A DNA stretch of 64,000 nt from Deltaproteobacteria bacterium. GTDB taxonomy: Bacteria > Desulfobacterota > Dissulfuribacteria > Dissulfuribacterales > UBA3076. The stretch spans positions 41,008 to 105,007 of the forward strand of contig PQXD01000009.1 in the NCBI GenBank assembly GCA_003194485.1. The letters are read 5' to 3'. This document shows positions 5,832 to 16,746 of this stretch, in pieces. The translations under genes were made by a program, and so were the position numbers. The notes beneath the pieces were generated by a model, which searched no databases, had not been told where the DNA came from, and was given only the letters and a program-made list of their open reading frames with translations. Within the stretch, counting starts at the first letter, position 1. Every line of letters starts with the position of its first letter.

Positions 5832-6683
5832 ATGAAATATTCGTGGCTGTTGATATCAGTCACCTTTAGAGACGGAAACAATTCAGAACCTGCGCACACA
5901 TATCAGCATAGGCTGTTTCCGAAATCTTACAATAAGACCGGCTTTGGTGCCTTTTTTCTTGTTTTTTTCCTCTTTTTTCATTTATCAGGTTGCGGGCACC
6001 GGCATATATCGCCTCCAACAATATCCATTCGGCGATTACCTGCAACCCAGCGTCCCTATGAGGTGAATGGACACGTTTACTATCCCTTGCCCTCTGCCGA
6101 AGGCTTTGTGGAGGAAGGGTATGCATCCTGGTATGGAGGCAAGTTTCACGGAAGGCCGACCGCCAGCGGCGAGCCATACAACATGTATGCCATGACTGCT
6201 GCCCACCGCATATTGCCCATGAATACATATGTCAGAGTAATCAACCTTGAAAATGGGCGGGAAGTCGTAGCCAGGATCAGCGACCGCGGGCCTTTTGCCA
6301 AGAACAGGATTATAGATCTCAGCTATGGGGCAGCCAGGAAGGTGGGGCTGATCGGTCCGGGTGTGGCAAGAGTGAGGATAGAGGCGCTGGGAGAGGTCCG
6401 GCCTGGAGCCGGAATTCCCGCGGTATTTAAGCCACACCCTGATTTCAGAAGAGGGAAATTCTATGTACAGGTAGGGGCCTTTTTGGAACCGGATAACGCT
6501 TATGCCCTGGGGCGAAAAATAAACAGATATTATAAGGATGTGGCTGTATTTCGCCAACAAAGAGGAGATCAGACCTTTTACCTGGTGCAGGTATTTGCAT
6601 CCACCGAGTATAATACGGCCAAGGACTTTGAAGCCAGGCTTGAAAGCTCAGGTTTCCCGGAGGCTTTTGTGGTTGCCAGATGA
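5832..6683 (+). CDS. rlpA: Septal ring lytic transglycosylase RlpA family lipoprotein with SPOR domain
   Basis: Lipobox LSGC, ASWYG, TASGEPYNM...TAAHR, RISDRGPF...RIIDLS and C-terminal YVQVGAF SPOR domain. The start is uncertain (5820/5832). Confidence 0.9.
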   Translation: MKYSWLLISVTFRDGNNSEPAHTYQHRLFPKSYNKTGFGAFFLVFFLFFHLSGCGHRHISPPTISIRRLPATQRPYEVNGHVYYPLPSAEGFVEEGYASWYGGKFHGRPTASGEPYNMYAMTAAHRILPMNTYVRVINLENGREVVARISDRGPFAKNRIIDLSYGAARKVGLIGPGVARVRIEALGEVRPGAGIPAVFKPHPDFRRGKFYVQVGAFLEPDNAYALGRKINRYYKDVAVFRQQRGDQTFYLVQVFASTEYNTAKDFEARLESSGFPEAFVVAR

Positions 6684-6705
6684 GGTGGAGAGGCCTGTAT
6701 CTTGC

Positions 6706-6734
6706 TTGACAGGTATCTCTGTGGGCCGTAATTT
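6706..6734 (+). promoter_or_regulatory. Putative sigma70 promoter of the T2SS operon
   Basis: TTGACA (6706-11), 17-nt spacer, TAATTT (6729-34), about 45 nt upstream of gspG TTG. Confidence 0.4.
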
Positions 6735-6777
6735 AATTAGTAATGATTTGAGCATGATATTGTCGGAGGTATTATTT

Positions 6778-7227
6778 TTGAGAAAAAGACTGAATGACCG
6801 TGGTCTTGCAAGGGGCATTGAGAGAGATTCGGGTTTTACCTTGATCGAGCTCCTGGTAGTGGTGATAATCATCGGACTCTTGGCTTCCCTGGTGGCACCC
6901 AAATTTTTCGGAAAGCTGGGAATGAGCAAACAAAAGGCCGCAAAGGCCCAGATCGAGCTCTTTGGCGCCGCCCTTGACGAGTTTCGCCTGGATAACGGTC
7001 GTTATCCTGATACTGAGGAGGGCCTTTCGGCCTTGCGGGAAAAGCCGGATGATCTTGAAAACTGGGCCGGGCCCTATCTGCCCAAGGCCGTTCCAAAGGA
7101 TCCGTGGGGACACGAATACGTCTACAAATCTCCCGGAGAGCACTATGACTATGATCTGATCAGCTACGGCCGTGACGGTGAGCCAGGTGGAGAAGGTGAA
7201 GACTCGGACATAGTAAGTTGGAAGTGA
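6778..7227 (+). CDS. gspG: T2SS major pseudopilin GspG
   Basis: SG|FTLIELLVV prepilin site, YPDTEEGLSAL, W.GPYL...PKDPWG...Y. GGAGG at 6765-69 precedes TTG 6778. Confidence 0.95.
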   Translation: MRKRLNDRGLARGIERDSGFTLIELLVVVIIIGLLASLVAPKFFGKLGMSKQKAAKAQIELFGAALDEFRLDNGRYPDTEEGLSALREKPDDLENWAGPYLPKAVPKDPWGHEYVYKSPGEHYDYDLISYGRDGEPGGEGEDSDIVSWK

Positions 7228-7232
7228 AGTAA

Positions 7233-8885
7233 TTGGGTGATCCTGTGAATATTCAAAACGTAGGATCTCGCCTGGTGTCTTTATTCAAAGGGAAAGGCGG
7301 GAACGGATTCCAAAACGCAGGCGGCGATCAGGTTCCTGGAGCCGAATCAAACTTAGCGGAGATTTCAGGGCCGGGATTTCCTGAAATAAGTGCGGCTGAT
7401 TTCCCAGACAAGCCACCCATGATTAATGGGCTGTCTCCGCAGCTAATGCGGCAGTGGCGGGTCGTCACACTGTCCCTGGACGACTCTGAAGCCAGGGTGG
7501 CCATGGCCACGCCCCAGGATCTGTACATGAGGGAGCTCCTTGAAAGTATTTACCAGAAGCCGGTCAGGCCCTTTCTCGCCAGTGAAGAGGATATCCTGGC
7601 CGCTGTTTACAGGTGGTACGAAGCCGATTCGGACCTGGGAGGAGAGGAGTCAGAGGACGAATCACGCGCTGTTGATGAGCTGTGGGAAGATCCTGAACAG
7701 TTGCGGGACCTTGCCTCCGAGGCCCCTGTGATACGTCTTGTAAACCACGTTATCAGCCAGGCCCTTGAAGTAAAGGCCTCAGATATACATTTTGAGCCGT
7801 TCAGGGATCTCTTGAAGGTAAGGTTCCGTATAGATGGAGTCCTTCACGACATCGAGACGGTCTCAAAAAGGCTACAGCCTGCGATTACCTCACGGCTGAA
7901 GCTTATGGGCAAGATGAATATCGCTGAGATGCGCTTGCCTCAGGACGGGCGCATCAAGGTCCGCGAAGGGCAAAGAGAGATCGACATAAGGGTCTCTTCT
8001 CTGCCCACCCTTTTTGGGGAAAGTGTAGTGCTCAGGCTCCTGAACCGGGAGGAGGTCCGGCTGGAACTTGAAACCCTCGGGATTTCAGCCGATATACTGG
8101 GAGATTTTGAAAAGATAATTTCAAGGCCCTATGGGCTGGTCCTGGTCACCGGTCCGACCGGCAGCGGGAAGACCACTACTCTTTACGGGGTCATGAACCG
8201 CATCAATGCCCCTGACAAGAAGATTGTAACAGTAGAAGACCCGGTTGAGTATCAGCTCGATGGAATAAATCAGATCCAGATCCGTCCTGAGATAGGGTTG
8301 GGCTTTGCCTCCGCCCTCCGCAATATCCTCAGGCAGGACCCGGACGTGATACTTATAGGGGAGATCAGGGACGCTGAGACCGCCGAGATTGCCATACAGT
8401 CCGCCCTTACCGGACATCTTGTATTTTCTACCCTTCACACAAACGATGCTGCAAGTGCAATTACCAGGTTGCAGGAAATGGGCATCGAGTCTTATCTTTT
8501 GTCTTCCTGCCTGCTGGCAGTGATGGCCCAGAGACTGGTGAGGAAGATCTGTCCCCATTGCCGGACTTCCTATGATCTGCCGCCCGGTTTTTTAGATGAG
8601 GTAGTTCAGGCCCTTGGAGCGGACAATATCCAGGCCCCATCCGAGGTCTGGCGGGGTAAGGGTTGCGCTCACTGCGCCAATACGGGGTTTTCAGGTCGTA
8701 CCGGCATATACGAGCTGATCAGGGTGGATGACGAGATAAGAAGAATGATAGTAAAGGGTGCTGACAGCAGCTCAATCCTTTCCAAGGCACAATCCCTGGG
8801 CATGAGGACGCTCCGTCAGGACGGCCTTCTAAAGGTCCTTGCAGCTCAGACAACCTTTGAAGAGGTTATGAGAGTCACTAATTAA
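7233..8885 (+). CDS. gspE: T2SS ATPase GspE
   Basis: ASDIHFEP, GPTGSGKTTTLY Walker [32 protein letters not shown] and Cys-pair Zn motif. Confidence 0.95.
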   Translation: MGDPVNIQNVGSRLVSLFKGKGGNGFQNAGGDQVPGAESNLAEISGPGFPEISAADFPDKPPMINGLSPQLMRQWRVVTLSLDDSEARVAMATPQDLYMRELLESIYQKPVRPFLASEEDILAAVYRWYEADSDLGGEESEDESRAVDELWEDPEQLRDLASEAPVIRLVNHVISQALEVKASDIHFEPFRDLLKVRFRIDGVLHDIETVSKRLQPAITSRLKLMGKMNIAEMRLPQDGRIKVREGQREIDIRVSSLPTLFGESVVLRLLNREEVRLELETLGISADILGDFEKIISRPYGLVLVTGPTGSGKTTTLYGVMNRINAPDKKIVTVEDPVEYQLDGINQIQIRPEIGLGFASALRNILRQDPDVILIGEIRDAETAEIAIQSALTGHLVFSTLHTNDAASAITRLQEMGIESYLLSSCLLAVMAQRLVRKICPHCRTSYDLPPGFLDEVVQALGADNIQAPSEVWRGKGCAHCANTGFSGRTGIYELIRVDDEIRRMIVKGADSSSILSKAQSLGMRTLRQDGLLKVLAAQTTFEEVMRVTN

Positions 8886-8886
8886 A

Positions 8887-10092
8887 ATGCCTACCTTTGC
8901 TTATGAGGCCCTGGATGTTAAAGGGCAAAAAATTCAGGGGACCGGCGAGGCTTCAAGCCAGGATCTCTTAATTTCTATGCTGATCTCTAAGGGCCTTCAG
9001 CCTGTCAGGGTTAAGAGGCTGAAGCGGTTTTATGCTTTGTGGAGCAGGAAAGGGGTCAGGTTCAGACATGATGATCTCCTCTACTTCACCAGGGAATTGG
9101 CTGATCTTCTGGAGGCCGGTGTCCCTCTGGAACGGGCTCTGGCCGTCGTGGAAGATGCTGCTGAGCAAAAGACAATACGTGAGCTGATTAATACCATAAG
9201 ACGGGAGATCCAGGGGGGTAAAAAGCTGTCAGAGGCCTTATCTTCCTATCCGGACATCTTCAACCGCCTCTACATCAATATGATACGGGTTGGGGAGTTG
9301 GGAGGTGTCCTCCCCATGGTTCTTAAAAGGTTGGATGGTTTCATCGAGCGTTCAAGAAATATTCGAAAGTTTATTATTACTTCATCGATCTATCCCGGCA
9401 TCCTGGCCCTTGTGGGCATCCTGTCCGTCTTTATCCTGGTGACCTTTGTAGTGCCAAAGTTTGGCCAGATCTTTGAGGATCTCAATCAGCCTATGCCCCT
9501 GGCCACCAGGTTAATAGTCAGGGCCAGCATGTTTCTTCAGTCATGGTGGTGGCTGTTATGCCTGGTTATTCTTGTACTTGGCACCGGTTTTTACTCCTAT
9601 ATCAAGACACCTGATGGAAGGGCCTGGTGGGACAGGGCAGTGCTTCGCCTGCCCTTGGCCGGCTCCATGTTGCTGAAGATAGAACTCGGTCGTCTGGCCC
9701 GCACCATGGGTACCTTGCTTGAGAGCGGTGTTCCCATACTCAAGGGTATTTCCCTCTCGGGAGAAGTGGTGTCCAACAGCGTCATACGGGGTGCTGTGGA
9801 GGACCTGTATAAGGGGGTCCGCCAGGGAAAGAGTCTCAGTCAGCTTATGAAACAGGCAAAGGTGTTTCCGTCACTCATGGTACATCTGGTGGCTATTGGG
9901 GAGGAAACAGGGGCCATGGGGCCCATGCTTCTGAAGATTGCAGATGATCTCGAAGAAAGGGTCCAGCACGATACCAAGGTCTATCTGTCCTTGGTGGAAC
10001 CTGTAACCATAGTACTGATGGGAATTATTATCGGCGGGATTATCCTGTCCATGCTCCTTGCCATATTCGGTATTAATGATGTGGCCTTATAA
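8887..10092 (+). CDS. gspF: T2SS inner membrane platform protein GspF
   Basis: MPTFAYEALD start, GELGG, IYP, GEETG motifs and three TM segments. Confidence 0.93.
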   Translation: MPTFAYEALDVKGQKIQGTGEASSQDLLISMLISKGLQPVRVKRLKRFYALWSRKGVRFRHDDLLYFTRELADLLEAGVPLERALAVVEDAAEQKTIRELINTIRREIQGGKKLSEALSSYPDIFNRLYINMIRVGELGGVLPMVLKRLDGFIERSRNIRKFIITSSIYPGILALVGILSVFILVTFVVPKFGQIFEDLNQPMPLATRLIVRASMFLQSWWWLLCLVILVLGTGFYSYIKTPDGRAWWDRAVLRLPLAGSMLLKIELGRLARTMGTLLESGVPILKGISLSGEVVSNSVIRGAVEDLYKGVRQGKSLSQLMKQAKVFPSLMVHLVAIGEETGAMGPMLLKIADDLEERVQHDTKVYLSLVEPVTIVLMGIIIGGIILSMLLAIFGINDVAL

Positions 10093-10101
10093 AAGGTCAA
10101 A

Positions 10102-10337
10102 GTAACCGTTCAATGGTTCAAAGGTTTACAGTTCAGAGGTTCAAGGGTTTACCGAAAATTTGAACCGTTGATTCGTGAGTTCTGAATGGAGAAGGCATGA
10201 GAATAGAACAATAGAGCAATGATAAATCAACAATCAACAATCAACAATCCAATGAGGCATGGCACTTGGCCCGAGACCTAACTCGCAAGGTCAAGGGAAG
10301 AAAGGTAACCCTGAACCCTGAACCCTTGAACGGTCAC
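10102..10337. mobile_element. MITE family B (GTAACCGTTCA-type TIR, heptamer-rich), 236 bp, inserted in the gspH leader
   Basis: TIR gtaaccgttcaa / ttgaacggtcac (11/12). Flanks aggtcaaa (10094-101) and aggtcaag (10338-45) form a 7/8 TSD. Internal GGTTCAA-, AATCAAC- and CCCTGAA-type repeats. Confidence 0.8.
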
Positions 10338-10775
10338 AGGTCAAGGGGTTTTACGCTAATTGAGCTCCTCGTGGTACTGGTACTTATAGGCATTTTCAGT
10401 TCCCTGGTCTTTGTGGCAGTTGCCGGCGGGATACTTCGGTCTGAAGAGAGGCGTTTTGTGCAGTCCTTTACACAGACCCTGGTCCGCGCCAGGTCCGCAG
10501 GTCTGGGTAGAGGCGAGGCAGTCAGGTTTTTGATTGATGGTGAGAGCAGGACCTTTTGTGTTGAAGGTCTCAAATGGCAGGATATACCCGAGTCCATAAA
10601 GGTAGAAGGCAAGGGAGTGGGCGCAGTGGAACCAGGTATCCATGCCGTGACCTTTTATCCTGACGGAAGCTCAAGCGGCGGTGAGATTGACCTCAAGTGG
10701 GAAGGAGGTCGCATGGACCGGATAGTGATAGACAGGTTCCTGGGGCTGGTAGGCATGGAGCGCATTTCATCGTGA
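10266..10775 (+). CDS. gspH: T2SS minor pseudopilin GspH with MITE-derived leader
   Basis: RSRG|FTLIELL site and VTFYPDGSSSGG GspH/FimT motif. The only in-frame start is TTG 10266 (GAGG 8 nt upstream), which lies inside the MITE. Confidence 0.85.
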   Translation: MARDLTRKVKGRKVTLNPEPLNGHRSRGFTLIELLVVLVLIGIFSSLVFVAVAGGILRSEERRFVQSFTQTLVRARSAGLGRGEAVRFLIDGESRTFCVEGLKWQDIPESIKVEGKGVGAVEPGIHAVTFYPDGSSSGGEIDLKWEGGRMDRIVIDRFLGLVGMERISS

Positions 10776-11200
10776 CAATCACTAAATCGTCAAATCGTCA
10801 AATCGTCAAATCGTCAGGTTTTACCCTCATAGAGGTCCTGGTTGCCACGGCAATAATGGGTATCGCGCTTGGAGTGCTGCTTTCCGGCTTTGCGCAGGGC
10901 CACAGGCAGGCCTTCAGGGGCGACATGGCCAGAGAGGCAGCGTATATAGCAGAGTCCGTGCTTTATGGATTGCTCCATGAGCCTGAATCCCTGTCTCCGG
11001 GTGAGGAGGACGTAAAAGATCATCCCGGATGGAGCTATAAGGTGGAAGTTCGGGACCTGGTCTTGAAGATAACGGTCCAGGACCAGGAAGAGAAAGAGAT
11101 CGAGATCCCCGAACTGAAGGAGCTTATTCTTACCGTACAACCTCCGTATAATGCACATCCTTTTGTATTGACCAGCTGGATACCGGCAGAGCAGATATGA
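10772..11200 (+). CDS. gspI: T2SS minor pseudopilin GspI
   Basis: SSG|FTLIEVLVA. GTG start overlaps the gspH stop (GTGA 10772-75). Confidence 0.85.
   Translation: MTITKSSNRQIVKSSGFTLIEVLVATAIMGIALGVLLSGFAQGHRQAFRGDMAREAAYIAESVLYGLLHEPESLSPGEEDVKDHPGWSYKVEVRDLVLKITVQDQEEKEIEIPELKELILTVQPPYNAHPFVLTSWIPAEQI
10784..10816 (+). repeat. Tandem repeat (AAATCGTC)x4 within the gspI leader
   Basis: Four perfect 8-bp units at 10784, 10792, 10800 and 10808. Confidence 0.95.
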
Positions 11201-11877
11201 GGAAAAAATCAATCACCAGATCCTCAGGCTTTACCCTGCTTGAACTCCTGATCTCAGTCACCCTCATTGCCGTGCTGGTCCTCATACTTTCCATGGCTGT
11301 CCGTACAGGACTGAGGGCCTACAGCAGGGGTAAAAAGATCAACAAACGTCTGATAGTTGTATCCTCCATTGAAGGACTTTTGGGAAGACAGCTCAGGGCC
11401 GTGGTGGCGGACGGATCTGATCTCAAGGATTTTTCCGAGTTTAATGGGAAAGAGAACGAGATATCCTTTGTGACTACCCACGTACCGCTTGGTTCCCAGG
11501 CAGGTGGCCTTTTCAGGGTAGTTTATCGTTTTGATGAAAAAAGAAAAAAGCTCATCTATGCCCAGAAGGTCATCACCAGGCCCGAAGACCTGAAAGAACC
11601 CCTTCCTGACAACATAGATCAGGAAGATAAAGAGGACCTGACGGAACAGGGCTGGGGCGTTTCGATCATAAACGGGATAGATTCGCTGGCCTTTACATAT
11701 CAAAGTCAATTGCCGGATGAATCCGACCCTGAGGATTGGCAGGATAACTGGAGTCAAAAGGGTAATGTGCCCGAGGCTGTAGCCATGGGCCTGGCCTTTT
11801 CCGATAATGGTAAGGAGCCTGTAACCACTTGGCGAGTTTTTTATACAAGTCCTTTTATTCTGGTAAGTGCAAAGTGA
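11197..11877 (+). CDS. gspJ: T2SS minor pseudopilin GspJ
   Basis: SSG|FTLLELLIS, C-terminal W...W....PEAV motif, ATGA overlap with gspI. Confidence 0.88.
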   Translation: MRKKSITRSSGFTLLELLISVTLIAVLVLILSMAVRTGLRAYSRGKKINKRLIVVSSIEGLLGRQLRAVVADGSDLKDFSEFNGKENEISFVTTHVPLGSQAGGLFRVVYRFDEKRKKLIYAQKVITRPEDLKEPLPDNIDQEDKEDLTEQGWGVSIINGIDSLAFTYQSQLPDESDPEDWQDNWSQKGNVPEAVAMGLAFSDNGKEPVTTWRVFYTSPFILVSAK

Positions 11878-12761
11878 TGGGACAGAAGGGTACGGTTCTT
11901 GTGCTGGTGTTGTGGGTGTTGACCCTGCTTACACTGGTCGGCGGCTTCTATGCGGTTGAGGCAAGAATCCGCAGGAACCTGGGGCAAGGTGCCTGGGATG
12001 CCCTGCAGGGCCGGGAGGCTGCGAGGTCTTTGCTGCTTCTTGCAGCAAGCAGATTGTCTCCTCCAGGAATGGACAGGGAAGAGGCAGAGGGCCGTCTTTT
12101 TGCTGACGGTAGTGTGTACAAGGCAAGGCTTGGAGGCAGAGAGGTCTTTTTTACCCTGCAAGACGAGAACGGAAAGCTCGATCTCAATAACAGCTCAGAG
12201 GATCAGATCAGGGAGGTAGTGAGAGCGATTCTTGGGGACGAGGAGCTTGAAGCCGCGGATACTATGGTGGATGGTATCTTGGACTGGAGGGATTCTGATA
12301 AGCTGGTGAGGCTGAACGGGGCAGAGGATGACATCTACCAAGACAGATCTCCGCCCTACTATCCTGCCAATGGTCCATTTCATTTGCTGGAGGAACTGCT
12401 CCTGGTAAACGGGGTCGGCCAGGAGGCGTTTTACGGGCCCATTACCTGGTCATCCCAGGAGGAAGACAGTGAAGTTATATGGCGGGGAGGCCTCTGGGAT
12501 TTATTTACAGTCTACAACAAATCAGGCGCCGTAAGTAAGGAATACGCACCCTTGCCTCTTAAGGAGATCCTGGGTGCCGAACTCGGTGATAACACTATAT
12601 CAACTCGTGAGGTGGCGTGTCTCAGAGTCTGGTTTGGCAGTCGTATATATCAGATTTACTGGGATACCCGGTCCGGGGCAGAGAAATTAAAGGTCAAGCA
12701 TTGGATAGAGGCAATTACTCCTGGACGAAAAGGCTCAAGGTGGTCAGAGAACGTGAAATAG
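11877..12761 (+). CDS. gspK: T2SS minor pseudopilin GspK
   Basis: QKG|TVLVLVLWVL (no E5, as typical), DENGKLDLN, ILDWRDSD and FHLLEELLLVNGV motifs. Confidence 0.9.
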   Translation: MGQKGTVLVLVLWVLTLLTLVGGFYAVEARIRRNLGQGAWDALQGREAARSLLLLAASRLSPPGMDREEAEGRLFADGSVYKARLGGREVFFTLQDENGKLDLNNSSEDQIREVVRAILGDEELEAADTMVDGILDWRDSDKLVRLNGAEDDIYQDRSPPYYPANGPFHLLEELLLVNGVGQEAFYGPITWSSQEEDSEVIWRGGLWDLFTVYNKSGAVSKEYAPLPLKEILGAELGDNTISTREVACLRVWFGSRIYQIYWDTRSGAEKLKVKHWIEAITPGRKGSRWSENVK

Positions 12762-14113
12762 TAGGGATTTACCTGGACGAGTCCAGGCTTGATGTCTTTT
12801 GTCTTAAGGGACGGCTCGGAAAATGGTCTTCTGTCCAACTGCCCTATACATTTGATGATACCGGACGTTCTTTGGCGGAACAGGTAAAAGGCGTACTTCA
12901 GGCTATTCATCCCTTGCGGAGACGTATTATATGTCTGGCCCTTTCTCGAAAGAACCTGTTTATGAGAGAATTAAGCTTTCCTCAACTGGAACCGGACGAG
13001 GCGGCAAATGCGGTCCGTATGGGCATAGGGCTTCACGCACACCTGAAACCGGATGAGATATATCATGATCAATGGGCATTTAAGCGTGGAGATAAGACGG
13101 TGGTGCTTCTGGCCTATATCCCAAGGAGTTTTCTGGATCCGATACTCCGGGTCGTTCGTGAGACAGGCCATGCCGGATCGCTTGGCCCTGTATCACCTGC
13201 GACTTTGGGGCTGGATATCCTGCTGCGCAGCAGCGCAGAATCCTCTCTTCCCTGTGTCAGCCTTGGCCGGCAGGGTAACTGCTGGATTATTTCTCTCCAC
13301 GGTATTTACGGGTGGGAAGGTTCACATTCCGTATCGGTCTCGGATGAGGAGGATATCTCGACGGACCTGCAAAAACTTGCCGAACATCTCCCTTCTCCTT
13401 TTCCTGATCTTGCAATGGCCCCCAAGTATGCAGTAGGGGGTTCCGGTGCGGTAATTCTGGATCCTCCCCCCAAAGATCCCTGTAGTGCCATAAAGGACCT
13501 TTCGAATATCTGTGGGCATGGGGAAAAAGTCACCTGGGGGTTATGTGCCGCTGCATTAGGGCTGAGTTCTTATCCTGCGATTTCTCTCCAGGAAGGCCCC
13601 CGTCGCAGACCTTTCCGTTTGCGCATAAAACCATATCAATTTGTTGTAGGGGCTGTTGCTGCGTCAGTCATACTGGCCACAGGGATACAGGGTTTGAGGA
13701 TCCAAAAGCGTGTACACTCTGTCCATAAGATGGAACAGGAGGTTCAGGAACTGCAAGAGCGCCTGTCGCCCATGCTGGATGCTCAGAAACGGTTGGAAAA
13801 AATCGACAATAAGCTCAAGGACCTGGAAGACTTCAAGCTCGAGAAGCCCTCTGAACTGAAGGTCTTAAAGGCCGTAGCCGAGCTTACGCCTCCAGAGACC
13901 TGGATAAGAAGTCTCGATATCAAAAATGACAAACTTAAGCTCACGGCCGAGGGCGGTTCAGCAGTAAAGGCCATGGGAAACTGGCGCCGGAGCCCGCTTT
14001 TTTCAGAGGTCAGGCTCATATCTCCTGTTAGAAAGTACAGACAGCAAAGGGAACGTTTTTCCGTGGAGATAAAGCTGGTCAGTGGAAAAGGAGAGGAGGG
14101 CAATGGAAATTAG
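12740..14113 (+). CDS. gspL: T2SS GspL-like protein (PilM-like N-terminal and PilN-like C-terminal domain)
   Basis: VGIYLD start, single TM, coiled coil, LTPPETWIRSLDI...LTAEG PilN-like end, operon position. GTG 12740 is preferred over the ORF-track start 12617. Confidence 0.75.
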   Translation: MVREREIVGIYLDESRLDVFCLKGRLGKWSSVQLPYTFDDTGRSLAEQVKGVLQAIHPLRRRIICLALSRKNLFMRELSFPQLEPDEAANAVRMGIGLHAHLKPDEIYHDQWAFKRGDKTVVLLAYIPRSFLDPILRVVRETGHAGSLGPVSPATLGLDILLRSSAESSLPCVSLGRQGNCWIISLHGIYGWEGSHSVSVSDEEDISTDLQKLAEHLPSPFPDLAMAPKYAVGGSGAVILDPPPKDPCSAIKDLSNICGHGEKVTWGLCAAALGLSSYPAISLQEGPRRRPFRLRIKPYQFVVGAVAASVILATGIQGLRIQKRVHSVHKMEQEVQELQERLSPMLDAQKRLEKIDNKLKDLEDFKLEKPSELKVLKAVAELTPPETWIRSLDIKNDKLKLTAEGGSAVKAMGNWRRSPLFSEVRLISPVRKYRQQRERFSVEIKLVSGKGEEGNGN

Positions 14114-14675
14114 CCGTCGGCTCTCCAGTAATGGAAGTCCCTTATTACGTTATGGTTTTTTGGTTATAGGACTTATACTCTGGTACAGCCTGGCATGGGC
14201 ACCGCTGTCCGGAAAAATCGAGGAGTTGGATAGCAGGATTGAGGCCCAGGAGGCGAAAATCGGGCGTCTGAAGCGTGACATCAAACGGCATCGCGGTGTA
14301 GATCAACGCATTGTGCAGTCGAAGCGCAGACTCACTGTTGCCGTAAAGGGGCTTATGCCGGGTGATACCCCCCAGCTTGTGGCATCCAATTTACAGGATA
14401 CCTTGCTCAAAATGGCCTCTGAGGCCGGTCTCCAGGTAATCACTTATAAAACAGGCCGGCAACGAAAATGGAGAGATTATCAACTTGCCGTAGCTATTTT
14501 CAGTGCCAAGACTGATATCAGGAAGCTGGTCAAGTTTTTGAAATTATCAAACGATGATCACAGGATATTTCGAATACATAGTATTCGCGCAATCAAGGTA
14601 GAGGGGCGTAATCCGCATCTCAGGGTCGACCTTGAGGTGGAAGCTCTCTTTATGAAAACTGGATCTGAGGGGTAA
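14103..14675 (+). CDS. gspM: T2SS GspM/PilO-like protein
   Basis: N-terminal TM (YSLAWAPL), coiled coil, operon position, GAGGAGG RBS before ATG 14103. Confidence 0.75.
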   Translation: MEISRRLSSNGSPLLRYGFLVIGLILWYSLAWAPLSGKIEELDSRIEAQEAKIGRLKRDIKRHRGVDQRIVQSKRRLTVAVKGLMPGDTPQLVASNLQDTLLKMASEAGLQVITYKTGRQRKWRDYQLAVAIFSAKTDIRKLVKFLKLSNDDHRIFRIHSIRAIKVEGRNPHLRVDLEVEALFMKTGSEG

Positions 14676-14682
14676 GGTCGAG

Positions 14683-16746
14683 ATGAGAATACAAGATCGG
14701 AGATGGATGGTCTGGAGTCTGGCTGTCATATGTTTTTTGGGATCCATTCAAGGCTTGGCTCTTGCTCAGAATCAGGCTACACAGGAGATCCCGTCAAAGG
14801 AAATTGAAAATGCCGCGCCTGATTCTAATGCAACTGTAATAAAGTCTCCATTTTCCGGAGCCGGGGTTGGTGAACGCCGTCAGATAGACATTACTCTGGA
14901 CAGTATGGATATATATCCTGTCCTGGATCAGGTCCTGGGGCGTATTCTGGAGCTCAACTATGTGGTAGATCCAGCCATTAAGGGGACCATTTCACTCAAT
15001 ATCAGGGGCAGATATACCAAGAATGAATTCCTTGATCTCTTCAATTCCATATTGCAGATACACGGCTTGGCCATAACCCGCGGCGCTCAGGATCTTTATA
15101 AGGTGGTACGGAAGGCCGGCAGCGCCAGAGCCGGATCAGAAGTGATAAATATCGGTGAACGGGTCCCCCATGCAGGAGACGTAATCAGTGTCTTTCAGCT
15201 CCAGTACCTCTCTGCGGCCCATGTAATCGCAAATCTCAGGAACTTTATCTCTCCCGGGGCGGTCATGGTGGCCGAGCCAAGTATAAATGCCGTTATCCTG
15301 GTGGACACTGCAGAAAATGTGGGCAAGTTGTCCAAAATATTGGCCTTAATGGACACGGATTTTTTTAAGGATATACATTGGCGTTTCTATACTCTGGAGC
15401 ATACCGATGTGGATGATCTGTCGAAAGACCTTGATAAGATATTCAAGACAAAAGGACTTTATATAAAGCCTGGTATTGATCCGGGCGGCCTGCAGATCAT
15501 GCCCTTAAAGACCATCAACTCCTTGCTTGTAGTGACCAAGTGGGAGGAAGTCCTGGATGTGGTGGGCAACTGGGTGACCCAACTGGATCAGGAGATATCA
15601 CAGAAGGGAACCCAGGTCTATGTATACTTTGTCCAGAACGGCAAGGCTGCAGATATCGCCGATATCCTCCGGCAGCTCTACGGCGGAAAGCCGTCAGATC
15701 GCAAAGGCAGGAAAGAGGTCCTTGTGGAAAGGGAGAAAAAGCCTGCAAAAGAGAAAGCCGTGCAGCATGCCGGGGAATTGGCCGGTGAGGTGGAAATCAT
15801 TGCGGACGAAGTCAACAATGCCATACTCATCAAGGCCACGCAGAGAGATTATGCCATCCTTTCAGAAGTGCTGAAAGAGATCGACATTGTTCCGCGGCAG
15901 GTCCTGATCGACGTGTTGATTGTAGAGGTCTCGCTGGGTAACGATATTGAATACGGGGTCGAGTGGTTTCTCAAGAGCCATATGGGGGGATCATATTCTT
16001 CTAACATTGCACTTACCGATCCTAATCTCGGAAACTTACCCAGGAACACGGCGCTTGGTACGGGCATTTCAGGATTTGCATACAGCCTGTACACAGGTGA
16101 CAGCCTTCGAAACTTAATTAAGTTGTTGGCTACGACGACAGATGTCAATATCCTCTCAGCGCCCAATATCCTGGCTGTGGATAACAAGGAATCCACCATC
16201 GAGGTCGTACAGGACGTGCCTACTTTGACTAGCTCGACTACCAGTACGACCGAGAGCACTCTCACACAATCGATCCAGTATCGAAGTGCCGGCATCCTTC
16301 TGAAGGTAACGCCTTCTATCAATGAGAGCAGACTGGTCAGTATGGAGATAACCCAGGAGGTCAGTTCTCTCCTTGAAAAGGCCAAAGTAGAGGGTATTGA
16401 CTCCCCAATCTTTCAGACCCGTAAGACTACAACCAATCTGGTGGTGCAGGACGGCCATACCATCATAATCGGCGGCTTGATGAAGACAAAAAAAGAAAAG
16501 AGCCGCAGTGGTATCCCTTTTCTCAAGGACTTGCCGGTCCTAGGCTATCTGTTCGGCTGGCGAAGTTACACAAACGAGAAGACGGAACTATTGATGACTA
16601 TTACTCCCTATGTCATACAATCCAAGGAGCAGGCCGACGCACTGACCAGGGAATTTAAAGGGCGAGTCAAGTCCTTGAAGCAGATGCTGGGGGAACATAA
16701 GGGCCTGGCCGGCGAGAAGGGTCTGGAGCAGGAAGATGATAACTAG
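14683..16746 (+). CDS. gspD: T2SS secretin GspD
   Basis: Signal peptide, N-domains, DIVPRQVLIDVLIVEV, ILSAPNILAVDNKES, GILLKVTPSIN, PFLKDLPVLGYLFG and ELLMTITPYV. Confidence 0.95.
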   Translation: MRIQDRRWMVWSLAVICFLGSIQGLALAQNQATQEIPSKEIENAAPDSNATVIKSPFSGAGVGERRQIDITLDSMDIYPVLDQVLGRILELNYVVDPAIKGTISLNIRGRYTKNEFLDLFNSILQIHGLAITRGAQDLYKVVRKAGSARAGSEVINIGERVPHAGDVISVFQLQYLSAAHVIANLRNFISPGAVMVAEPSINAVILVDTAENVGKLSKILALMDTDFFKDIHWRFYTLEHTDVDDLSKDLDKIFKTKGLYIKPGIDPGGLQIMPLKTINSLLVVTKWEEVLDVVGNWVTQLDQEISQKGTQVYVYFVQNGKAADIADILRQLYGGKPSDRKGRKEVLVEREKKPAKEKAVQHAGELAGEVEIIADEVNNAILIKATQRDYAILSEVLKEIDIVPRQVLIDVLIVEVSLGNDIEYGVEWFLKSHMGGSYSSNIALTDPNLGNLPRNTALGTGISGFAYSLYTGDSLRNLIKLLATTTDVNILSAPNILAVDNKESTIEVVQDVPTLTSSTTSTTESTLTQSIQYRSAGILLKVTPSINESRLVSMEITQEVSSLLEKAKVEGIDSPIFQTRKTTTNLVVQDGHTIIIGGLMKTKKEKSRSGIPFLKDLPVLGYLFGWRSYTNEKTELLMTITPYVIQSKEQADALTREFKGRVKSLKQMLGEHKGLAGEKGLEQEDDN

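Follow-up and report, generated by a model that had tools for sequence, protein, structure and literature searches.

An in-frame octanucleotide repeat in the leader of a GspI-like pseudopilin gene of Seep-SRB2, probably a tolerated microsatellite

Several described bacterial repeat systems resemble, in part, the locus reported here. In the opa genes of Neisseria, CTCTT pentamers occupy the leader-peptide coding region; changes in copy number occur at a rate of about 1e-3 per cell per generation, with both ON and OFF alleles being common (PMC3745409). The long simple sequence repeats (LSSRs) of prokaryotes have units of 5-11 nt. As the work of Mrazek, Guo and Shah (2007) is summarised in PMC4679880, they are dominated by heptamers, lie far above chance expectation, are enriched outside coding sequence, occur sporadically across taxa and are put down to polymerase slippage. 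TAACTGA heptamer repeats are known from marine Beggiatoaceae, Cyanobacteria and Bacteroidetes (MacGregor 2015, PMC4679880). Here we describe a perfect octanucleotide array at the 5' end of a gene for a GspI-like minor pseudopilin of a type II secretion system (T2SS). It lies on a 64,000-nt stretch, which we call the window, of contig PQXD01000009.1 (positions 41,008 to 105,007 of the forward strand; assembly GCA_003194485.1). The genome, that of an uncultured sulfate reducer of methane seeps, belongs to Seep-SRB2 (genus UBA3076, Dissulfuribacterales), a syntrophic partner of anaerobic methanotrophic (ANME) archaea (PMC10553843). The main paper on Seep-SRB2 genomics mentions neither tandem repeats nor type II secretion (PMC10553843), and we found no literature linking Seep-SRB2 with type II secretion.

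The most likely explanation for the array, to which we give a probability of about 0.7, is that it is a frame-constrained octanucleotide microsatellite of the genome-wide LSSR class that is tolerated in a cleaved-off leader. The array would occupy a permissive site, the N-terminal leader of the GspI-like protein, which prepilin peptidase is expected to remove. Translation, coupled to the stop of gspH, would begin at GTG10772 and run through the array, yielding a hydrophilic leader of 15 residues before G-1 as compared to 7 in the short alleles of relatives; the eight extra residues are presumably neutral. Over evolutionary time, replication slippage, short-patch conversion or both would remodel the array, and selection would allow only the frame-preserving states (one or four units) to persist, as for octamers in essential genes. 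Single-unit slips would give GspI-null cells in which translation of gspJ is uncoupled, and they are best seen as mutational load and not as a regulated switch.

Read directly from the sequence, GTG10772-ACA-ATC-ACT is followed by (AAATCGTC)x4 at 10784-10815 and then by A10816, GGT10817 and TTT10820. Tandem Repeats Finder scored 10784-10816 (plus strand) as period 8 with 4.1 copies and a 100% match, and the array codes for KSSNRQIVKSS of the leader peptide. A preliminary description of this DNA had placed four copies of the unit between the gspI start codon and the cleavage site, and both the sequence and the repeat search bear this out. The leader coding region as a whole (10772-10819, plus strand), recognised by the PF07963/TIGR02532 motif, comprises 16 codons including G-1 and reads M/V-TITKSSNRQIVKSS-G. 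GTG10772 is in the same frame as G/FTLIEVL (the slash marks the cleavage site) and opens a 142-codon frame, VTITKSSNRQIVKSSG/FTLIEVLVATA. In its own genome this region (window 10772-11200) is C87:51779-52204.

Because the unit is not a multiple of three, we simulated different unit numbers. As the preliminary description had also proposed, the frame was kept only at 1, 4 and 7 units. With 2, 5 or 8 units the product is cut to 14-30 residues by a stop at 10832, and with 3 or 6 units to 66-74 residues by one at 10980. These stops lie 365 and 217 nt, respectively, ahead of the gspJ ATG, which in the normal frame overlaps the gspI stop as ATGA. In the out-of-frame alleles, translation of gspJ, being coupled, would probably be impaired too.

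The observations support a start of translation at GTG10772 (10772-10774, plus strand), upstream of the array, against the NCBI annotation of the contig, where gspI begins at an ATC within the array (P0084, MVKSSG/FTL, 132 aa); P0086 and P0021, which are orthologues, have likewise been called from an array-internal ATC. One possibility is that these calls are correct and that initiation occurs at ATC10802. Each unit contains an ATC, and which one is in frame depends on the distance to the array's 3' end, so that an in-frame ATC would be present at any number of two or more units and no frame shift would be possible. However, an internal start would leave the unit number free, yet only one and four units, the numbers that keep codon 10772 in frame, were seen, and this in two genes. 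The codon at 10772 is also kept as GTG or ATG in all relatives and is in frame with the mature protein in every allele. The change from GTG to ATG (in G002, G005 and L051) preserves the start codon of gspI and is synonymous in gspH, whose TGA stop (10773-10775) shares bases with GTG10772 as GTGA; this overlap is constant among relatives and resembles the ATGA of gspI and gspJ. Between the array and the cleavage site there is no in-frame ATG, GTG or TTG, so the start is either upstream of the array or at a non-canonical codon within it, and ATC is a very weak initiator. We therefore consider an internal start very unlikely. The gene model of the preliminary description, in which the repeat is translated from GTG10772 and the start does not lie downstream of it, is upheld by the in-frame-only numbers of the relatives. 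The NCBI call is also a warning for annotation, as a repeat of this kind can mislead the choice of start codon.

To see which unit numbers occur, we compared about 90 gspI and gspJ leader sequences in all, not all of them independent. Only one or four units were found, and no leader had an out-of-frame number. Among 15 congeneric species genomes, the gspI leader was 45/48 nt long (four units) in 11 and 24 nt long (one unit or none) in 4. The gspJ leader was 57 nt (four units) in 7 genomes and 30/33 nt (one unit) in 9. When metagenome contigs were scanned with a pattern accepting about 1-8 units, 15 contigs were retrieved, of which some are identical with records in the genome set, and all 15 had four units. 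Likewise, about 75 GspI N-termini from a protein collection had leaders of 7-8 or 15-16 residues only, apart from exceptions explained by alternative start calls, contig-end truncations, N-masked stretches and one start-less contig (L055).

Within species the array was constant. The window and three metagenome contigs of the same species from other samples (L046, L048 and L049), which are at most 0.003 substitutions per site apart, all carry AAATCGTC x4, and all six other near-identical or close pairs share their state. The preliminary description would have given up the switch it proposed if all reads and strains had exactly four units; at the level of assemblies, this is what the four of the species have, but related species also have one.

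Between species the array has changed. A tree of flanking genes makes the long gspI leader ancestral, with at least two contractions from four units to one in gspI and three changes in gspJ, over in-group branch lengths of about 1.07 substitutions per site (summed by hand). The sister genus has a decayed four-unit gspI array of equal length (AAGTTGTC AAATTGGC AGATGGCC AGGTCTCC). All four units of the window share two differences from the genus-typical unit (CGTC as compared to CACC). The gspI leader of the G017 lineage (L003 and L050) has alternating AATCACAA and AATCACCA units, arranged as (ab)(ab), and so points to a step of 16 nt in which two units were duplicated; this lineage probably passed through an out-of-frame intermediate. 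The contractions, the homogenised unit variants and the 16-nt step indicate that the array turns over on an evolutionary timescale, and the slipped-strand turnover that the preliminary description invoked is visible in these between-species comparisons. Given this turnover, single-unit slips that produce GspI-lacking mutants must arise. There was no sign that such mutants reach appreciable frequency or are selected.

Several sequences looked at first sight like OFF alleles or unusual arrays and were set aside. Two N-terminally truncated homologues, P0040/L056 and P0094/L057, are contig-end cuts, and a third, P0033, comes from a part of G006 that is masked with N's. The contig of P0036/L055, 718 nt long, shows a chimera or rearrangement and no change in unit number. 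In L055 (ENA contig k119_2355157), bases 1-140 are unrelated AT-rich DNA in place of the gspH 3' end, joined to AATCACAA x3; there is no in-frame gspI start codon, and the contig is either an assembly chimera or a rearrangement broken within the array. An apparent double gspI leader in L054 (NKAJ01001138.1, oriented 7650-8533) appears to be a scaffolding artefact in which duplicated segments are linked by single N's; the gspH-3'/gspI-5' segment occurs twice, as does a later segment of gspI.

The same octamer family occurs in other genes of the genus, in frame and on the sense strand: in murG, in pheT, in the N-terminal part of pdxA and in the gene for an Opp-like ATPase. Among species, murG has 4, 7 or 10 units, pheT 5-6 units, homogenised differently by lineage, and pdxA 1, 4 or 7 units; in the window's genome the murG array is at C33:55585. 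Cells would not survive the switching-off of murG or pheT, and the in-frame-only pattern there therefore reflects purifying selection; the gspI and gspJ leaders behave alike. An in-frame-only pattern with steps of three is the product of purifying selection on a slippery non-triplet repeat. The sense-only orientation could be taken as a sign of a strand-specific mechanism. However, three units of the reverse complement (GGTGATTT or GACGATTT) suffice to bring a TGA into each frame, so that selection by itself accounts for the orientation. In murG of G009, G005, G013, G010 and G003 (L085, L086, L088, L089 and L090), a further insert, made of another short repeat (CCACAGACCCACAC GGACACACAC GGACA, coding for ATDPHGHTRTF), is nested within the octamer array and divides it, and the frame is kept.

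These comparisons bear on the proposal of the preliminary description that the array is an ON/OFF switch for the whole T2SS. It could be speculated that the array is a true contingency locus, in which one-unit slipped-strand changes at a useful frequency switch GspI and, through coupling to gspJ and gspK, the pseudopilus tip and the T2SS, as a form of bet-hedging. For mixed populations to arise, such a locus would have to slip at about 1e-5 to 1e-2 per generation. The layout is that of the opa repeat (PMC3745409), to which the array is closest in this respect: in both, a non-triplet repeat lies after the start codon and before the mature protein, in a dispensable, cleaved leader. In addition, the out-of-frame products would end well ahead of the gspJ ATG as given above, the array is perfect, the genus has seen several changes of state in both gspI and gspJ, and the T2SS, which acts at the cell surface, is not essential. 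Unlike opa, however, the gspI array is known from in-frame alleles only, has just four units (33 nt) and is stable within species. Contingency tracts of the classical kind are longer, and near-identical isolates differ in how many units theirs contain. The lack of any out-of-frame allele in the leaders compared, the like behaviour of octamers in essential genes and the lack of a preference of the repeat class for surface functions also speak against switching. We consider a contingency locus unlikely, and the ON/OFF switch finds no support in these data. If it did exist, a phase-variable T2SS in an obligate partner of ANME archaea would be a notable route to vary the cell surface or secretome inside consortia of ANME archaea with sulfate-reducing bacteria; the evidence is not supportive.

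Four points weigh against a tolerated, frame-constrained microsatellite. First, assemblies give a consensus only, and out-of-frame subpopulations below about 20-30% would escape notice. Second, because the T2SS is not essential, OFF variants would survive, unlike those of murG and pheT; the essential-gene controls thus show that selection is sufficient for the pattern, and not that switching is absent. Third, the assemblies of L012 (G006), L055 and L057 end, are N-masked or change partner at or beside the gspI array; these breaks could be due to heterogeneity in unit number or, equally well, to the about 50 nt of identity between the gspI and gspJ leaders. Fourth, the array is perfect although the long leader is older than the genus, which implies ongoing homogenisation and a real rate of slippage or conversion. 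Even so, we infer that adaptive switching is absent and that a tolerated microsatellite explains the array best. Understood in this way, the locus is a natural experiment in which a prepilin leader tolerates a doubled length and in which non-triplet microsatellites can live in coding sequence if they change in threes.

The array is one member of a repeat class that extends across the genome. Counting perfect arrays of at least 2.5 copies, the 2.55-Mb genome contains 147 with 7- or 8-nt units (110 of period 7 and 37 of period 8) as compared to 0 in a locally shuffled genome. Period-5 arrays are at chance level (36 versus 33 in the shuffled genome). The gspI array is therefore no chance feature, yet it is not unique. 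The intergenic portion, about 13% of the genome, holds 73% of the 7/8-nt arrays, and 28 spacers have several arrays each, one of them being the spacer between gspF and gspH (10093-10265). A few unit families recur: AACATCG in 55 arrays, AACCCTG in 32, AAATTGG in 23, and the octamers ATCACCAA/ATCGTCAA (ATCNNCAR). Distance to a start codon was within 30 nt for 24 of 92 arrays and within 100 nt for 57 of 92. Neither the 7/8-nt arrays of the genome nor the octamer-bearing genes showed a preference for surface functions. The repeats thus gather in spacers, 5' ends and linkers throughout the genome and are not specific to the T2SS, and the gspI array adds a new locus to the 7/8-nt repeat family of Seep-SRB2.

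With arrays in excess of what composition predicts and copy numbers that change between relatives in a way that fits slippage, the repeats fall in the LSSR class, which is the closest in kind among described repeats. Unlike LSSRs as summarised in PMC4679880, a few unit families recur at many unlinked loci in the window genome, and non-triplet units lie inside coding regions and change by three-unit steps only. We met no case of an LSSR in a prepilin leader in the literature, though no search was aimed at one. The TAACTGA system is alike in having one particular 7-mer in many short arrays of 2-6 copies, most of them between genes and close to starts, in an uncultured sediment bacterium; a few of its arrays are read in frame in peripheral parts of proteins, MurG among them, and stop codons limit their orientation within open reading frames (ORFs) (PMC4679880). 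The Beggiatoaceae genome comes from Guaymas Basin, as do several Seep-SRB2 genomes (PMC10553843). On the other hand, a search of both strands of the window's genome for tandem TAACTGA or TCAGTTA found 0 arrays. The window genome also differs from the TAACTGA system in having several unit families, including octamers, and in having arrays not only at termini but also in the internal loops and linkers of essential enzymes.

The position of many arrays near start codons raises another possibility, that the gspI array acts in the transcript. A G-poor, structure-free tract might keep the initiation region of coupled gspH-gspI (and gspI-gspJ) open or bind a factor, and so tune the stoichiometry of the minor pseudopilins. 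In minimum-free-energy folds of the initiation region at 1, 4 and 7 units, the array formed no RNA structure and was almost wholly unpaired. In addition, gspI, gspJ and pdxA all have the octamer unit at their 5' ends, and MacGregor (2015) put forward translational regulation for the TAACTGA arrays (PMC4679880). However, alleles of one and four units occur in all four gspI/gspJ combinations among close species without visible compensation, the octamer family is also found in mid-gene positions far from starts (murG and pheT), and no binding factor or conserved structure was identified. A role in translation is accordingly rather improbable.

A further question is whether the octamer arrays evolve independently. 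The derived unit of the window, ATCGTCAA, is two positions off the genus-wide unit ATCACCAA, and it fills three unlinked arrays of the window genome: gspI (x4), pheT (x5, C3:15047-15089) and pdxA (x7, C33:72700-72759). In the congeners searched, every perfect gspI array consisted of ATCACCAA, and no unit was commoner than ATCACCAA at pheT or pdxA. Each of the other lineage-specific variants occurs at one locus only, namely pheT in G003, G005 and G007, pdxA in G013 and murG in G015. In a distant lineage, the single metagenome contig L051 has a gspI array with the same derived unit as the window. The sharing of the derived unit, known from one lineage together with this one contig, and the near-identity of the gspI and gspJ leaders hint at exchange across loci. 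It may be, tentatively, that the ATCNNCAR arrays of Seep-SRB2, those of the gspI and gspJ leaders included, form a dispersed family whose members exchange sequence and do not simply slip independently of one another; ectopic short-patch conversion or some unknown templated process could mediate such exchange. If so, exchange would let arrays jump between in-frame states without out-of-frame intermediates.

Other arrays lie close to gspI. The window gspJ leader is in the single-unit state, with AATCACCA GATCCTCA at 11211-11226. In seven congeners, the gspJ leader has (AAATCACC)x4, where AAATCACC is a related, genus-typical unit. The gspI and gspJ leaders are 430 nt apart and near-identical through the array. 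On the other side of gspI, an (AACCCTG)x3.4 array (10307-10331, plus strand; Tandem Repeats Finder), of the family with 32 arrays genome-wide, lies within or just 5' of the gspH leader. The start of gspH is ambiguous, being TTG10266, with a Shine-Dalgarno-like GAGG 9 nt upstream, or TTG10326 (leader MNGHRSR), and the array may therefore lie 5' of the start and outside the leader. The preliminary description had noted two adjacent pseudopilin leaders with repeats and had regarded this as non-random. There is indeed an array by gspH, and an octamer array in the gspJ leader of other species, but the gspH array may precede its start, and the clustering reflects the genome-wide 7/8-nt repeat class and not the T2SS.

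The spacer between gspF and gspH (10093-10265, plus strand) is expanded as compared to relatives and carries many short arrays by Tandem Repeats Finder, among them GTTCAAAG-like repeats at 10108-10152, AATAGAAC at 10202-10220 and AATCAAC x3.6 at 10225-10249. Several congeners (e.g. G004, G009 and G020) have no such spacer, and their gspH ATG overlaps the last codons of gspF (MWLYKRSK/GFTL). In the window genome, a relic gspH ORF from ATG10079 ends at TAA10103-10105. Between this relic and mature gspH lie about 240 nt that consist largely of 7/8-nt arrays together with decayed copies of the former junction, and part of the expansion is common to G013. A new TTG start, at 10266 or 10326, is needed for gspH.

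The genes around the array form a complete T2SS operon in the order G-E-F-H-I-J-K-L-M-D (6538-16746, plus strand; Pfam and NCBIfam matches), with all genes on the plus strand. It encodes GspE (7233-8885), GspF (8887-10092), a GspH-like minor pseudopilin (10266-10775), the mature GspI-like minor pseudopilin (FTLIEVL..., 126 aa and a stop, 10820-11200), a GspJ-like minor pseudopilin (11197-11877), GspK (11829-12761), an L-like gene (12617-14113), GspM (14082-14675) and the secretin GspD (14683-16746). GspG, GspD and the T2SSK domain score above curated cut-offs. In gene order, the three minor prepilins correspond to XpsH/GspH, XpsI/GspI and GspJ, with each match below the curated cut-off; the GspH-like gene was compared in addition with G013 and the GspJ-like gene with relatives.

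For the protein that carries the array, the end of the leader, ...KSSG/FTLIEVLVATA, is a prepilin N-methylation motif, with PF07963 (E 2.2e-7) and TIGR02532 (26.7 bits) both over their cut-offs. The matches to GspI family profiles are weak and lie below theirs (TIGR01707, 25.5 bits against 44.35; NF047828, 37.2 bits against 150). The gene sits between gspH and gspJ-gspK in a cluster with those for GspD, GspE, GspF and GspG. Motif and synteny together make "GspI-like" the accurate label. An AlphaFold2 model (predicted confidence, pLDDT, 80) has a long N-terminal helix at 19-69 and a sheet of four strands, a generic pilin "lollipop". A Foldseek search of the model against the PDB gave no match at E <= 0.001, and a sequence search of the PDB retrieved pilin N-terminal helices only. 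A prepilin peptidase (PF01478, 81.6 bits) that could cleave the leader is encoded elsewhere in the genome. Compared to canonical GspI/XpsI, which have leaders of 6-8 residues, the protein is alike in the G/F-T-L-I-E cleavage and methylation motif, in size, in its position between gspH and gspJ/gspK and in the coupled, overlapping genes; it differs in a leader of twice the usual length, owing to the array, and in profile scores under the family cut-offs.

At the head of the operon, in the GspG ORF (6538-7227), about 95 codons precede the prepilin motif at residues 96-119, and the true start of GspG is probably well downstream of the listed ORF start.

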